Below are positions 32,711 to 37,610 of a DNA stretch of 64,000 nt, one piece after another. Source of the stretch: Deltaproteobacteria bacterium (GTDB lineage Bacteria; Myxococcota_A; Polyangia; Fen-1088). Location: NCBI GenBank assembly GCA_033763315.1, contig JANRKS010000024.1:161988-225987 (forward strand), read 5' to 3'. The notes beneath the pieces are model-generated. The model saw only the letters and a program-made list of their open reading frames with translations, was not told the DNA's origin and searched no databases. Each line of letters starts with the position of its first letter. Position 1 is the stretch's first letter. Both the position numbers and the translations under genes were made by a program.

Positions 32711-33691
32711 ATGCGATATCTATATGTGGCGTTTTTAACTTCTGCTTTGGCCACCGCCGCGGGGTGCCGCGTCGAGGATGGGGATGCAGGCGATGAATAC
32801 CGAAAAGGCATCCCAAACCAGGCGACCGTCGAAGTGCAGGTGCCCGGCACCAGCGGACAGGCATTGAGCGTCGCCGGTGAAGGCAAGGTGTCCGAATATT
32901 ATCGGTTGACCCGCGTGGTTAGCCGCGACGTCAACGCTGGGGTTTACCTCGTGCTGAACCTGGTGCGCGACGTTGTGCGCTACCCACCCACGGCCGTCAC
33001 CGCCAACGCAGCGGTATGGGGCCCGTTCTCGGAGGCGCTTGATCCCATCGCGTGGAAAGTCACCGTTACCCGCACAACACCGAACGAGTACGCCTATAAG
33101 TTCGAAGGGCAAGCCAAAGCCAACCCAGCGTCAGCCTTCATCACGGTCCTGTCAGGCGTTCATCGACCTGCGCTCGGTACCGACGGCGCACCCATGGAGG
33201 GCTTCGGAGAAGGCAATTTCCTGTTGGACTTTGAGGCGCGCAACCGGCTGCCCATGCCACAGCGGGACATCGGATCGGCCGCCGTCACCTATTCGCGTCC
33301 TAACTTAGCGACGCCCGTTCAGATCACGGCGAAATTCACGGCCGTCAAAGACGACGAACGCCCCAACCACACGGTGGACGTGGATTACCGCTACAAGCGC
33401 AACGCCGGTGGCAGTGGCGAGCTTGAATTCACCTACAAGCCCGACCGCACCTTGACCGACCCAGGCCAAGTTGCCGTGATGAGCCGCTGGAACGAAACCG
33501 GCGCCGGCCGCGCCGACGTTAAAGCAAAAGGTGGTGCCTTGCCGGCCAACATCGAGGCCACGGCCAATGAATGTTGGAGCAACACCTTCACAAGCGTGTT
33601 CGTGCAAACGAGTTGGGATCCGAGCCTGACTTACGGCACAGAAGCCATGTGTGCCTTCCCCAACGCCACGTACGCAACGTTGATGCTGTAA
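32711..33691 (+). CDS. Lipoprotein of unknown function (paralog of 36696..37610)
   Basis: AGGAGA SD, lipobox TAAGC, VWGPF, SRWNETGAGRAD, ECW. Confidence 0.8.
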   Translation: MRYLYVAFLTSALATAAGCRVEDGDAGDEYRKGIPNQATVEVQVPGTSGQALSVAGEGKVSEYYRLTRVVSRDVNAGVYLVLNLVRDVVRYPPTAVTANAAVWGPFSEALDPIAWKVTVTRTTPNEYAYKFEGQAKANPASAFITVLSGVHRPALGTDGAPMEGFGEGNFLLDFEARNRLPMPQRDIGSAAVTYSRPNLATPVQITAKFTAVKDDERPNHTVDVDYRYKRNAGGSGELEFTYKPDRTLTDPGQVAVMSRWNETGAGRADVKAKGGALPANIEATANECWSNTFTSVFVQTSWDPSLTYGTEAMCAFPNATYATLML

Positions 33692-33702
33692 TACTCTCTA
33701 AC

Positions 33703-33730
33703 GGAGGTGGCGCACCGAAACGCCACCTCC
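33703..33730. other. Perfect 10-bp stem hairpin between the lipoprotein and sigma genes
   Basis: GGAGGTGGCG-CACCGAAA-CGCCACCTCC; no following U-tract on the + strand. Confidence 0.6.
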
Positions 33731-33744
33731 AAGAAGACTCTAAC

Positions 33745-34272
33745 GTGACATTGCGGCTCATACACAAAGAAACGCAACAGCAGCAAAGGCCTGCATTGCG
33801 TGAGCTGTACGAAAACTACGGCGGCTCTGTGTATGGCCGCTGCGTTTACCTTCTGCGCGACAAAGCCAAAGCCGAGGACGCCATGCAGGATGTATTTGCG
33901 AAGGCACTCGAGAACTACAGCCACTTTCGCTCCGAATCCTCGCCGCTCACGTGGCTCATGCAAATCGCGACGCACCATTGTTTGAATCTTTTGCGCAGCG
34001 AACGTGCGCCATGGCGTTCGCGCTTTCGTCGCGAGCAGACCGCAAGGAGTGAAGCGCAAGGAGGTCCCGCCGTGCTTGAGGCGCGCGATTTCGTGCGTCG
34101 GGTGCTGATGCGTTTTGACGCTGAAACACAAACGGTGGCGGTTCTTTATTACGTTGATGAAATGACGTTGGACGAAGTGGCACAGGCCGTGGGCCGGTCC
34201 GTGCCCACCGTTCGCAAACGTTTAGAGGCGTTCGCTTTGGCCATGCGCAACGAGGCAGGCGCGTCATCTTAG
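33745..34272 (+). CDS. ECF-type RNA polymerase sigma factor
   Basis: Region 2 AEDAMQDVF...FRSESSPLTWLMQIATHHCLNLLR; region 4 MTLDEVAQAVGRSVPTVRKRL. GTG start uncertain. Confidence 0.9.
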   Translation: MTLRLIHKETQQQQRPALRELYENYGGSVYGRCVYLLRDKAKAEDAMQDVFAKALENYSHFRSESSPLTWLMQIATHHCLNLLRSERAPWRSRFRREQTARSEAQGGPAVLEARDFVRRVLMRFDAETQTVAVLYYVDEMTLDEVAQAVGRSVPTVRKRLEAFALAMRNEAGASS

Positions 34273-34281
34273 GAGTTTCAC

Positions 34282-35076
34282 GTGAACAACTCAGAAGCAC
34301 GCAAAGATACGTATAGCGAGATCACCTTGCGGCGGTACCGTGCGGGTGAGCTCTCAGCCGACGAGCGACAAGCGATAGCGAACGCCGCCGCGCGCGACAC
34401 TGAACTACGTTTACGTCTGCGTGCACTCGCGGATGAACAAAGTGCGTTCGAAGCCGCGGTGCCATTTGAACGCTTCGTGGGGGGGGTCAGCCGCGCACAG
34501 CGCGAACAGCAGCGCCGGCTGTCAAAGCGCGCTCCGTTGTGGGCGGCGTCCGCAGCAACGATGGCGTTGGCCGCGGCTGCCATGGTGGTGATGGTGATTG
34601 CACCTATGCAACAAACACCAAGCACGCGCACCAAAGGCAGCCATGACGCCTTCACAAGCCACGTGCGCGTCGCCAGCGACAATGGTGAACAGCGCGTAGC
34701 GATGCCCGGTAAGCTGACGTCGCTGCGCAAAGGCGACCGCGTGCGCGTGGGTGTTCAACTTAAAGCCGGGGCAACGTATTTTGCCGCCGTCAGTGTCGAG
34801 CCCTCGGGCGCCACAACAGCGATCTATCCTGAAGGCAACTCGGCTTTGCACATCGTCCCCACCAAGGAGCCCATGTACATGCCCGACAGCGTGGAGTTTA
34901 CGGGGCATGGCGATGAAACGTTGTTTATCCTAACTGCGCCGCAAGCATTTGATGTGGCCGCCGCCGCAGACGCATTAAAAGCGTTGCCCCACACGAACGA
35001 ACCAGCAACGCTTGAGCGCCTCGGCGCAAAGATCCCGGGGTTGGTGGCCATCCCCTACCCATTGCGTAAACCCTGA
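34282..35076 (+). CDS. Putative membrane anti-sigma factor (ASD-like N-terminus, one TM, DUF4384-like extracytoplasmic domain)
   Basis: LRRYRAGELSADERQAI N-terminus, hydrophobic helix, TRTKG, LRKGDRVRV...IYP; directly after the sigma gene with an AGGAG SD. Confidence 0.75.
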   Translation: MNNSEARKDTYSEITLRRYRAGELSADERQAIANAAARDTELRLRLRALADEQSAFEAAVPFERFVGGVSRAQREQQRRLSKRAPLWAASAATMALAAAAMVVMVIAPMQQTPSTRTKGSHDAFTSHVRVASDNGEQRVAMPGKLTSLRKGDRVRVGVQLKAGATYFAAVSVEPSGATTAIYPEGNSALHIVPTKEPMYMPDSVEFTGHGDETLFILTAPQAFDVAAAADALKALPHTNEPATLERLGAKIPGLVAIPYPLRKP

Positions 35077-36686
35077 TGCTATTGCGATCCTTCGTCTTGC
35101 GGCTGACATGTGCGGCGCTGATCGGCGCCAGCATGGCTCCCTCGCGCGTGGTGTGTGCCGCGGATGAACGACGTTTCGCCGTTGTGATCGGCAATGATTT
35201 GGGCGGCAACGATACCCAGCCACTGCTCTACGCGCGCCAAGACGCTCGCCGCATGAAAGACGTGTTGCTTCGGGTGGGTGCCGTCAAAGACGAAAACGCC
35301 ATCAGCTTGTTGGGCGCAGACGCGGCCGCGGTGAGAGCGGCGCTTGCCGACGTGGAGCGACGGGTTCGCCTGGCCACGAACCAAGGCTTACGAACCGCAC
35401 TCATCGTGTATTACTCGGGCCACGCCAAAAACGGCGATTTGCGCCTAGGCACCTCACGCCTACCACTTGATGAACTTCGCGCGCGCGTCAGCCACAGTGG
35501 CGCCACCATTCGACTCGGGATCATCGATGCTTGTCGCTCAGGCGCCGTGACCCGCAGCAAGGGTGCGCGCAGGGCGCCTGCCTTCGAGATTGAAGCCACC
35601 TCCAACGCGCAGGCCGAGGGCACTGTGTTTTTGTCATCCAGCAGCTTCGATGAAGACGCTCAAGAATCGGATCACCTCGAAGGCAGCTTCTTCTCGCATC
35701 ACTTCGTTAACGGGCTGCAAGGCGCCGCCGATCGTTCGGGCGACGGGCGCGTCACTTTATCCGAAGCCTATGCACACGCGTATGCTCAAACCGTTGCCAG
35801 CACAGCGGACAGCGCAGCGGGACCACAACACCCGACCTTCGGTTACGACCTTAAAGGCAATGGCGATTTCGTCCTCTCGGAATACGCGCGTCGCAACGAA
35901 GGCTTGCTGTTTCCAGCCGCGGCACCCGCAGGCACATACTTCGTGATCGATAACCAAGGCGTCATCGCCGCAGAAGTTGATAAGCCGATCAATGAAGTGC
36001 GGCGCATCGCGGTTCGACCGGGGCGTTACATCGTTAAGCGCCGCCTCGAAGATCGGCTACGCATTGGCAATATAACGGTAGCCGCGAACCAACTAAGCAC
36101 GGTGCAAGACGCCAATTTGGCGGACGCGCCATTTTCAGACGATCCAGTCAAGGGCGCCGCACGCGATGTGGCCGGCATCTGGTCTTTGAACGTGGGGCTC
36201 ACATCGCAGGCGTTTTTCGATCAGCCCACGCGCGAGGGGCTGTTTCCCAACAGTGGCTTGCTTGCCGCTGAACTCAGCGTGGCCAATTTTTTCCGTCGTC
36301 ATTGGGTGGCGAGCTTCGACGTCGCTGCGGGCGGCGGCAATGGAGAGGTCGCGCACTTTGCGAGCGCCGTTCCGTTTCGCACGAACCAGTTGAACCTCGG
36401 CACCAGCTTGTGGACCGAGTGGCCTTATTTCGATGGCGATTTGTCGCTGTTCGCTGGCGCGCGCGTCGCGTTTTTGTTTTTGAACCGGCGCTTCGAGGAC
36501 GACGTTCTGCCTGCGCAACATTTTTCAACATTCAGCCCGGGCTTGTTGGCGGGTGCCCGCTACAAGCTGACCCGCGCGGTGACGGCCATGGTGCGGACAC
36601 GGGTGCATTACTTGCTCTACAACGTGGACGAGAACCGCTCGCTTGGCTTCATGGAGCTGGGCGCGGCCTTCGAGTACGGCTTTTAG
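35076..36686 (+). CDS. Exported caspase-family (C14) protease with C-terminal beta-barrel-like domain
   Basis: Signal peptide; RFAVVIGN, YYSGH (His), IIDACRSG (Cys), QES...SFFSH...GAAD..GDGRVTLSEAY; amphipathic strands ending FEYGF. Confidence 0.85.
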   Translation: MLLRSFVLRLTCAALIGASMAPSRVVCAADERRFAVVIGNDLGGNDTQPLLYARQDARRMKDVLLRVGAVKDENAISLLGADAAAVRAALADVERRVRLATNQGLRTALIVYYSGHAKNGDLRLGTSRLPLDELRARVSHSGATIRLGIIDACRSGAVTRSKGARRAPAFEIEATSNAQAEGTVFLSSSSFDEDAQESDHLEGSFFSHHFVNGLQGAADRSGDGRVTLSEAYAHAYAQTVASTADSAAGPQHPTFGYDLKGNGDFVLSEYARRNEGLLFPAAAPAGTYFVIDNQGVIAAEVDKPINEVRRIAVRPGRYIVKRRLEDRLRIGNITVAANQLSTVQDANLADAPFSDDPVKGAARDVAGIWSLNVGLTSQAFFDQPTREGLFPNSGLLAAELSVANFFRRHWVASFDVAAGGGNGEVAHFASAVPFRTNQLNLGTSLWTEWPYFDGDLSLFAGARVAFLFLNRRFEDDVLPAQHFSTFSPGLLAGARYKLTRAVTAMVRTRVHYLLYNVDENRSLGFMELGAAFEYGF

Positions 36687-36695
36687 GAACATGCG

Positions 36696-37610
36696 ATGAT
36701 AAAGACACACCCCCTTCGCGCTGTGACACTGTTGACCCTGGTCGGCCTGACAGCCTGTGGCGGCAACTATTCAAACGACGACATCGAATATCAAACGTCT
36801 GTTCCGCAAGCGGAAGATCTGACGCCAAACATTGCCGCTCAGCTTGTGGCCAACAGCGCGGAAACGTATCGGTTCACCTACGGCATGGTGGGCTCTTACA
36901 GAGCCATACTCGGATTTGTGGCATCGTTGCTTGATCACGTCCGACAGAACCCAGCCACACAACGGCTTGCCAATGGTCGCGTCTGGGGGCCGTTTCCCGA
37001 TCGTGAACACCCGGGTTTTGAAGTAAAGGTGATGATTACGCGCGGTGGTGATGCAGCGGCACCGCAGTTCACGTACAGCGTTGATTTTGCATCCGCACGC
37101 ACGCGGATGTTTGTGCCTGTCATTTTCGGCACCTTCGATCCCCGCGGTGCCATCGGTGACGGCAGCGGACAGGTGACGCTGGATTTCGCAGGGTTACGGT
37201 CCACCGGCTTTCCCGGCGATCGCGACACCACAAACATCATGAAGATCGAGATGGTCCACGGTCGCAAAGATGGATCGCGTACGCTTGAAGTTCACCAAAC
37301 CAACACCGAGGCTGCCGACAACCGGCGCACGGACTTGACTTACGCCGAGGCCCCCGACGGCGCTGCCCGCACTCACTTCGTGATGGCGGTGACCAACAAT
37401 CTGTGGGCGCAAGAGCTGGATGTTGTGAGTGCGTGGCGCAGCGACGGCGCCGGCCGCGGCGAGCTGAAGGTGACGCAAGGATTGGCCACGGGCCTTCTGG
37501 GCATCGACTGTTGGGGCCCATCGACGGTGGCCACATATGTGAGGCGCGATTGGAATGAGGCCGTCAACGCGGGTGACGTCAACACGTGCGTGTTGCCTGC
37601 TCTGCGTTAG
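36696..37610 (+). CDS. Lipoprotein of unknown function (paralog of 32711..33691)
   Basis: Lipobox LTAC, VWGPF, SAWRSDGAGRGE, DCW. Confidence 0.8.
   Translation: MIKTHPLRAVTLLTLVGLTACGGNYSNDDIEYQTSVPQAEDLTPNIAAQLVANSAETYRFTYGMVGSYRAILGFVASLLDHVRQNPATQRLANGRVWGPFPDREHPGFEVKVMITRGGDAAAPQFTYSVDFASARTRMFVPVIFGTFDPRGAIGDGSGQVTLDFAGLRSTGFPGDRDTTNIMKIEMVHGRKDGSRTLEVHQTNTEAADNRRTDLTYAEAPDGAARTHFVMAVTNNLWAQELDVVSAWRSDGAGRGELKVTQGLATGLLGIDCWGPSTVATYVRRDWNEAVNAGDVNTCVLPALR

Follow-up and report, generated by a model that had tools for sequence, protein, structure and literature searches.

Homologs of caspases are plentiful in bacteria, and for hardly any of them are substrates known. In Myxococcus xanthus DK1622, four of the five metacaspases are encoded in operons with a sigma-70-family factor; the same arrangement is found in Anaeromyxobacter, Haliangium, Sorangium, Ralstonia and Fibrobacter, and programmed cell death was the setting in which the genes were discussed [Asplund-Samuelsson et al. 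2012, PMC3501461]. In the main text of that paper, the terms “anti-sigma”, “cleavage site” and “autoprocessing” are absent. Here, an instance of this gene association is analysed in a stretch of 64,000 nucleotides (the window) from a Deltaproteobacteria bacterium (Myxococcota_A; Polyangia; Fen-1088; assembly GCA_033763315.1, contig JANRKS010000024.1, positions 161,988 to 225,987 of the forward strand). In the window, a sigma factor of the extracytoplasmic function (ECF) type, a single-pass anti-sigma factor and a periplasmic protease of the metacaspase/orthocaspase type (Peptidase C14) form one module. Judged from sequence, it is on balance probable that the protease is specific for Lys or Arg, processes itself, and acts as the site-1 protease for its anti-sigma factor. 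The orthologs of this module include those of Myxococcus and Corallococcus; what goes beyond the main text of the 2012 paper is the matching of the motif, the placing of the protease in the periplasm, its anchoring by a barrel and the reading of the caspase as a site-1 protease.

A periplasmic caspase-fold module is also part of the DdvS/DdvA system of M. xanthus. DdvA is a transmembrane anti-sigma factor with a fused periplasmic TPR-CHAT caspase-fold domain, and it has been proposed to cut its own juxtamembrane linker first, ahead of RseP (PMC11506125). The likeness to what is proposed here extends to the first cut, which would lie in a flexible linker beside the anti-sigma transmembrane (TM) helix. 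However, the protease-like domain of DdvA is fused to the anti-sigma factor, is CHAT rather than C14 and lacks a complete active site, and a cut by it is only proposed; the window system has a separate C14 protein with an outer-membrane anchor of its own, and candidate sites can be named from its sequence. Further systems are linked to CRISPR: craspase (Cas7-11 plus the TPR-CHAT protein Csx29) cuts the anti-sigma-like protein Csx30 (PMC10028731, 10.1101/2023.06.23.546230), and CalpL cuts CalpT in the CalpL/CalpT/CalpS system (10.1101/2023.06.23.546230). Here too, a dedicated protease (caspase-fold in craspase) cuts an anti-sigma-like linker and frees an ECF-type sigma factor, and some Csx30 C-terminal domains are DUF4384 (10.1101/2022.08.17.504292, 10.1101/2023.06.23.546230), i.e., the family which the periplasmic domain of the window anti-sigma factor resembles. 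Unlike the window module, craspase and CalpL belong to the cytoplasm, are linked to CRISPR and have RNA or cyclic oligoadenylate as their trigger, and the craspase sites follow Met or Leu, not a basic residue (cited in PMC11506125). No CRISPR genes were seen adjoining the window cluster, although no search was aimed at them. CHAT proteins also occur in the gene neighbourhood of ECF54 sigma factors (PMC8999054). A literature search, in which subscription journals were thinly covered, returned no C14 caspase described as the protease of a neighbouring anti-sigma factor, and no shared motif.

Within the C14 family, orthocaspases take a basic residue at P1 (PMC6426788). The linker between p20 and p10 is where caspases are processed, and the orthocaspase MaOC1, the only one biochemically characterised as of 2017, is active only after autoprocessing (PMC5756287); it cleaves the antitoxin of a toxin-antitoxin module located after its own gene (PMC7935541). 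MaOC1 and the type II metacaspases resemble the window protease in belonging to C14, and their basic P1 specificity and need for autoprocessing are those proposed here. However, they have neither a sigma/anti-sigma partner nor a barrel, and a motif at +9 mirrored in a partner protein is not described for them in the available text. In the RseA/DegS/RseP pathway, a single-pass anti-sigma factor receives a periplasmic site-1 cut, which leaves a short stub, and an M50 site-2 protease acts next. The window module is like this pathway in having a single-pass anti-sigma factor and M50 genes in the same genome: there are eight M50 (PF02163) matches in six open frames, the best with E values of 8.9e-61 and 1.8e-60. 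The site-1 protease of the RseA pathway is an inner-membrane serine protease with a PDZ sensor, whereas that of the window would be an operon-encoded, outer-membrane-anchored cysteine protease of the caspase family.

The reading of the caspase as a self-processing site-1 protease begins with three places, all on the + strand, at which a basic residue is followed by Gly. The first is TRTKG in the anti-sigma factor (34624..34638, residues 115-119, ACG CGC ACC AAA GGC), which starts nine residues past the TM helix (residues 87-106 in the AlphaFold2 (AF2) model); its predicted scissile bond is K118-G119. The second is TRSKG in the loop of the caspase that follows the catalytic Cys (35550..35564, residues 159-163, ACC CGC AGC AAG GGT), where T159 is six residues and K162 nine residues after Cys153. 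The third is DDPVKG, where the linker to the barrel begins (36138..36155), within which PVKG (36144-36155, residues 357-360) ends eight residues ahead of the first barrel strand. A preliminary description of this DNA had pointed to TRTKG just outside the TM helix, to TRSKG six residues after the catalytic Cys, and to a related PVKG before the barrel; all three are where it placed them, and PVKG proved to belong to a site that is matched by class like the other two. In the AF2 models, the three motifs sit in flexible stretches between folded or membrane-embedded parts: the predicted local distance difference test score (pLDDT) is below 50 at caspase residues 155-178 and 359-365, and 53-56 in the anti-sigma linker.

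Taken alone, the pair of proteins in the window matches at chance level: three patterns of the form ab-x-de are shared, against 3.7 +/- 1.9 in 2000 shuffles, 72% of which reach three. It is the comparison with relatives that makes the shared motif significant. A scan of one genome per species yielded 359 relatives, and the best 80 of the 359 were kept as ortholog loci. R-x-K-G is present in the caspase loop at all 80, and in the alignment R160, K162 and G163 are each invariant (38/38). An anti-sigma homolog lies immediately 5′ of the caspase at 77 loci; K-G is at the aligned place in 73 of these 77, and Arg stands two residues before the Lys in 60. In an alignment of 42 anti-sigma factors (the one from the window and 41 of the 77), 41 have K118, 41 have G119, 33 have R116 and 32 have Asn at position 115, and at positions 105-114, just before the motif, the commonest residue is found in only 5-17 of the 42. 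The length and sequence of the linker are hypervariable among orthologs, the motif excepted. Of the T-R-x-K-G that the preliminary description took to be shared, the core R-x-K-G held good and the Thr did not: the first position of the anti-sigma motif is mostly Asn. At the third site, D355, D356, P357, K359 and G360 are each found in 38 of 38 caspases.

The source genome has 11 caspase genes, 10 of which directly follow a gene for an ECF sigma factor and a gene for a protein with one TM helix. When classed by the first [KR]G located 5-16 residues after the catalytic Cys, eight of the 11 are K-class and three are R-class; seven K-class and all three R-class genes follow an anti-sigma gene. For the seven K-class pairs, the motifs in caspase loop and anti-sigma linker are TRSKG and TRTKG (the window pair), TRVKG and VRAKG, TRVKG and ERTKG, IRLKG and INIKG, TGSKG and VGIKA, TRVKG and ERIKG, and TRVKG and VRRKA; for the three R-class pairs, they are TTRGG and QWRGG, FTRGG and QARGA, and EARGP and SERGN. 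Caspase loci of this genome are on contigs C28, C6, C11, C9, C20, C7, C5, C22 and C2 (L002-L010); two of the R-class caspases, those on C22 and C2, have hydrophobic helices in place of a barrel at the C-terminus.

The comparison was widened by 32 more caspase places in 11 related genomes, and then by 27 loci from a 301-genome sample of the phylum, in which 23 genomes (the source genome included) matched at E<=1e-20. Among 144 distinct caspase domains (114 K-class, 28 R-class and two with R-D or R-K), 137 have a basic residue at exactly +9 from the Cys and Gly at +10. A linker was scored as positive if the 50 residues that follow the best hydrophobic 19-mer in the upstream open reading frame contained KG or RG at any place. 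By this rule, 95 of 105 K-class pairs have KG after the TM helix and 34 have RG, and KG is found in 3 of the same 105 in the 50 residues before the helix and in 20 in the following 50 residues. The 24 R-class pairs show the converse: RG follows the helix in 20, R[GAS] in all 24, and KG in two. A separate scan of metagenome contigs with an R-class alignment served as a replicate and yielded 79 caspases, with R at +9 in 75 and G at +10 in 74; in its 56 R-class pairs, RG follows the helix in 50 and R[GAS] in 54. The preliminary description had named co-variation of the two motifs in homolog pairs as a check, and at the level of class such co-variation exists. The third site, about 200-215 residues after the Cys and just ahead of the C-terminal anchor, follows the same division: KG is present there in 103 of 110 K-class caspases (as DDPVKG, VRKGG and similar sequences) and RG in 26 of 28 R-class caspases, and in 59 of 61 in the replicate. 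Two R-class caspases, L148 (G015:C141) and L134 (G276:C25), have K-G at the third site, and the anti-sigma linker of L148 also has K-G (VSKGG); these may be a mixed or transitional state between the classes.

The resemblance between the sites goes beyond the basic residue. In the K-class, the loop consensus is L-T-R-x-K-G-A-R and the linker consensus N-R-x-K-G-G, with Arg at P3 in 90% of loops and 73% of linkers. In the R-class, P4 is hydrophobic, P2 small, P1 R and P1′ G in loops, linkers and third sites alike. The columns of the caspase alignment that best separate the classes include 194 (D/E), 196 (Q/H) and 198 (S/W), which flank the conserved E197. The simplest account is that the three class-matched, flexible basic-Gly sites are substrates of a Lys/Arg-specific active site. 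The interpretation put forward in the preliminary description, namely that the enzyme cleaves itself at (or is autoinhibited by) TRSKG and cuts the anti-sigma factor at TRTKG, is supported by this comparison, as a prediction.

Several observations weigh against that interpretation, and some of them would be expected if the resemblance were a structural coincidence, i.e., if the basic-Gly sequences were turns or domain caps at three domain boundaries, kept for folding, with K and R one ancient substitution pattern inherited by two clades, and with the caspase having other substrates or none. The residue changes between K and R once on the caspase tree (FastTree, midpoint-rooted), where the R-class is a single clade with support 1.0; the Fisher probability (4e-15 for KG) therefore overstates the case, as the pairs are not independent evidence, and what the evidence amounts to is two deep lineages, each holding a matched residue at three sites in two proteins. 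What stays fixed is the spacing of the anti-sigma motif to the folded domain's first strand (Arg129 lies 6-11 residues beyond it; median 6, sd 1.1) and not its spacing to the membrane (it lies 18-36 residues beyond Ala98 of the TM helix), so that the motif could be a structural N-cap; this spacing fits docking through the domain equally well. A further conserved junction K-G, K260-G261 (35853-35858, YDLKGNG), lies between the caspase and sandwich domains, in a segment with pLDDT below 50 (259-261) and with L259 and G261 invariant in the orthologs; it has no class pattern, and it was not counted as a further site because the paralogs break the K/R rule there. The chance-level match of the window pair taken alone also fits this account. 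However, the three sites are spread over two proteins that are not homologous, and AF2 models the segments around them as unstructured; the sites switched together and stay matched down to about 30% identity; the flanking consensus is common within each class; KG is rare in the control segment before the TM helix; and class-specific residues of the caspase flank E197. A structural coincidence is considered unlikely.

There is also no co-variation at a finer scale within the ortholog set, in which the caspase motif is invariant, whereas P3 of the anti-sigma motif varies: its Arg is replaced by G, H, Q, S, A or T in 16 of 77. Eight anti-sigma factors have Gly at P3 (D-G-x-K-G in seven, N-G-I-K-G in one) while their caspases keep R. 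K-G itself is missing from three intact anti-sigma factors (NRTMG, NRLMG and NRIKS); the fourth exception among the 77 is a broken frame. Three R-class pairs are mismatched, since the caspases of L207 and L226 have R-D and that of L165 has R-G, and the anti-sigma factors of all three have K-G; in the replicate, 14 of the 56 R-class linkers also hold KG. One apparent co-variation of P3 in the K-class, with Gly in the anti-sigma factor of three of five pairs with caspase Gly and of 10 of 92 with caspase Arg, was set aside and is not used as evidence: it comes from two small clades, and the automated pick was wrong for some rows, such as L106 and C7.

Another observation on the same side is that caspases without a neighbouring anti-sigma factor (C6, L098, L111 and L120) keep the loop motif, which makes the loop motif independent of the anti-sigma factor. 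This could be explained if all three sites were cut by a third protease in the periplasm, be it a same-class caspase paralog working in a cascade or an unrelated enzyme of the trypsin-like kind; the encoded caspase would then itself be among the targets, and would not act as site-1 protease on its own anti-sigma factor. The motifs are near-identical within a class across the eight K-class and three R-class genes, so cross-cutting by paralogs is possible. On the other hand, the strict adjacency of the two genes (77/80) and their overlapping stop and start codons point to a cognate pair, the class-specific changes beside E197 are in the caspase itself, and no further protease gene is conserved in the cluster, in which the conserved neighbours are two lipoproteins. 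Of the alternatives considered here, cutting by a third protease appears the least probable.

The self-processing site-1 protease presupposes an active enzyme. The caspase (35076..36686, +, 536 amino acids) belongs to Peptidase C14 by family score (PF00656, 39.9 bits against a cut-off of 21.4, residues 32-220), by its His-Cys dyad and by its caspase/hemoglobinase fold. Peptidase_C14 is the sole Pfam match at E<=0.01, with no match to CHAT or TPR; NCBIfam NF047832 (caspase, EACC1-associated type) scores 56.1 bits against a cut-off of 140, which indicates a relative and not a member. The catalytic domain spans 35166..35804 (residues 31-243), with the catalytic His116 in SGHA (35421-35423) and the catalytic Cys153 in DACRSG (35532-35534; flanking sequence DACRSGAVTRSKG). 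Both are invariant in 38 of 38 orthologs and conserved in the K- and the R-class. The AF2 model, built on the 38-sequence alignment, has a mean pLDDT of 80.6, with segments below 50 at 20-28, 155-178, 259-261, 359-365 and 518-520. Foldseek matched the catalytic domain to caspase-7, -8, -3 and -6 and to MALT1 (E 1.3e-5 to 5e-5; TMt 0.55-0.70 for the caspases), and the alignments to MALT1 caspase-Ig3 cover 460-534 columns. The nearest solved sequences are metacaspase-1, -4 and -9 (E 0.0013-0.06), and D56 aligns with the Asp of the metacaspase C-x-x-D stretch (E 0.0013). D56, D151 and E197 are conserved in both classes; by analogy with metacaspase and MALT1 structures, they may form the S1 pocket for Arg or Lys.

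The loop after the catalytic Cys (35538..35609, residues 155-178) takes the place of the caspase intersubunit (p20/p10) linker. In executioner caspases, the corresponding cut comes about 12 residues past the catalytic Cys. Despite the low pLDDT of this loop, G156, R160, K162, G163 and F170 are invariant in it; H116, C153, R160, K162, G163 and F170 are, with D355, D356, P357, K359 and G360, among the invariant residues of the whole 38-sequence alignment. The protein has 48 Arg and nine Lys residues, with no R-G dipeptides, and three of the nine Lys precede Gly.

Matching motifs would be expected from binding no less than from cutting. The active site could be filled by the anti-sigma linker, and perhaps also by the loop of the caspase itself, as an uncut pseudosubstrate or docking segment, so that the anti-sigma factor would hold or inhibit the protease, or the protease would be a co-sensor, and the sigma factor would be released by dissociation or by another site-1 protease. 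The anti-sigma motif adjoins a DUF4384-like domain, and this family is often fused to protease domains (10.1101/2022.08.17.504292); autoinhibition was also the alternative offered in the preliminary description, and it fits the present data as well as self-cleavage does. However, the dyad and the acidic residues are fully conserved, such that the enzyme looks active from its sequence; P1′ is small, as would suit a scissile bond (95% and 90% of linkers have G there, the others A or S); and the related systems craspase–Csx30 and CalpL–CalpT do cut (10.1101/2023.06.23.546230). That the motifs are pseudosubstrates or docking segments throughout is quite improbable.

The protease carries a beta-sandwich domain and is, according to the models, tethered to the outer membrane by an OmpA-like barrel. 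Its N-terminus is a probable signal peptide, as suggested by its hydrophobicity (35076..35162, approximately residues 1-29; helix 2-19, followed by the low-confidence segment 20-28); the middle domain is formed by AF2 strands at residues 254-351 (35835..36128); and the C-terminal barrel (36177..36683, residues 368-536) has eight strands over 368-535, an invariant Y534 and a terminal aromatic residue in ...EYGF. Foldseek matched the barrel to OmpA, Ail, NspA and OmpX (E 1.8e-9 to 8.7e-6, TMt 0.38-0.76), the best E value being that of OmpA (1.8e-9) and the best TMt that of NspA (0.76). One caspase ortholog (P0084) has a precomputed PF13505 match.

The anti-sigma factor (34282..35076, +, 264 amino acids) has, in an AF2 model of mean pLDDT 84.9, a helical domain in the cytoplasm, a single TM helix, a linker and, in the periplasm, a beta-sandwich. 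The TM helix (34540..34599, residues 87-106) was located by AF2 and a hydrophobicity scan; the unstructured juxtamembrane linker (34600..34650, residues 107-123) is coil according to DSSP, and the pLDDT range given above applies to it as a block; the periplasmic beta-sandwich plus alpha/beta domain spans 34651..35070 (residues 124-263; block pLDDT 84-97). DUF4384 (PF14326) matches the window protein below threshold (E 0.0025, 18.3 bits against a cut-off of 27) and 27 of 42 orthologs at E<=0.01, the best at 4.7e-6. For the helical N-terminal anti-sigma domain, zf-HC2 matches 15 of 42 orthologs at E<=0.01, and the zinc ligands H-x3-C-x2-C are kept in at least 90% of the 42 aligned proteins; the window copy has A35, D39 and L42 at the ligand positions and has apparently lost zinc binding. 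A fold relative of the periplasmic domain was sought, and only generic Ig-like sandwiches were returned (RhoGDI, PDE6D; Foldseek E >= 1.2e-3); the best VIA Z of 7.8 is a typical best score in the absence of a clear relative, and gives no function.

The mechanism that these features suggest would run as follows. The protease would recognise a basic residue followed by Gly, as R-x-K|G in the lineage of the window and as hydrophobic-x-x-R|G in the sister lineage. It would cut, or be held shut by, the motif in its own loop nine residues past Cys153 (this site may be a pseudosubstrate instead of a substrate), and it would free itself by a cut at the same motif in the linker that precedes its membrane anchor. 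The freed enzyme would then make the site-1 cut in the unstructured tether between the TM helix and the periplasmic domain of the anti-sigma factor; the stub left by a cut at K118|G119 would be sufficiently short for an M50 site-2 protease to remove it, upon which the sigma factor would be released. The distance between the two membranes is a further point against a site-1 role, since an enzyme tethered to the outer membrane would be far from an anti-sigma site near the inner membrane unless it were released; with that site only 12 residues from the inner membrane, release of the caspase seems necessary.

The genes of the module are tightly packed and all on the + strand, as read from the window sequence and its list of open reading frames. 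The sigma gene (33745..34272) probably starts with GTG at 33745, in a frame already open from 33571; its product scores 56 bits with Sigma70_r2 (cut-off 24) and 71.1 bits with TIGR02937 (cut-off 42.9), which classes it as an ECF-type sigma factor. The ATG of the caspase gene overlaps the stop codon of the anti-sigma gene (TGATG). A sigma homolog lies 5′ of the caspase at 75 of the 80 ortholog loci, and the three loci without an anti-sigma homolog start no more than 192 nt from a contig end. The 80 loci span Polyangia, Myxococcus, Corallococcus and Archangium, among others. A search with the caspase protein gave 1447 matches at E<=0.001 among 8000 candidates scored, and the 120 matches listed have 52-100% identity across nearly the full length. 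The module was not found in plasmid records in a tblastn search (E<=1e-8) aimed at Ralstonia megaplasmids.

On either side of the three genes is a lipoprotein gene: upstream at 32711..33691 (+, 326 amino acids, lipobox ...AAGC) and downstream at 36696..37610 (+, 304 amino acids, lipobox LTAC). The two lipoproteins are paralogs (24% identity over 320 columns, E 5e-15), and neither matches any family in the Pfam and NCBIfam scans. Homologs of the upstream one are present at 80 and of the downstream one at 79 of the 80 ortholog loci, so that the conserved unit is probably one of five genes. After the lipobox Cys, the downstream lipoprotein has a conserved GNYSNEDL[ED]F and the upstream orthologs a conserved [FY]-R-x-[GA]-[VLF]-P; a Y-R-K-G in the upstream lipoprotein of the window, 12 residues after the lipobox Cys, was considered as a fourth site and rejected, as the Lys is not part of the conserved sequence. 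In the 53-nt gap between the upstream lipoprotein stop and the probable sigma start, there is a perfect 10-bp stem-loop (33703-33730) with no T-run after it; the stretch of 63 nt folds with -22.5 kcal/mol (z -3.9), a stability that none of 200 shuffles reaches. In a simple pattern scan, the ECF promoter pattern GGAAC-N14-18-CGT was found in 4 of 73 upstream regions, and the window region was without it.

A wider picture can be drawn tentatively, and it is more doubtful than the site-1 role itself: the module may be an envelope-spanning switch that reports failure of barrel assembly or of the envelope to transcription, with parallel caspase cascades across Myxococcota. The barrel would keep the zymogen at the outer membrane, and the zymogen's substrate, tethered to the inner membrane, would be beyond reach; the juxtamembrane K|G would be accessible only to a protease that has cut its own anchor linker, or to a precursor whose insertion into the outer membrane failed. 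The 8-11 modules per genome, in K-G and R-G classes, would then be parallel and possibly cross-talking cascades that control ECF sigma factors.

If the reading of the caspase as a self-processing site-1 protease is true, the triplets of protease, anti-sigma factor and sigma factor would be orthogonal parts for synthetic circuits. For a large family of bacterial caspases, with members in cultured Myxococcus and Corallococcus, the analysis provides a concrete candidate substrate, with three predicted scissile bonds and two specificity classes. If true, it would also describe a new route of ECF sigma factor release, via an outer-membrane-anchored cysteine site-1 protease, and would give a mechanism to the sigma–metacaspase operons noted in 2012.

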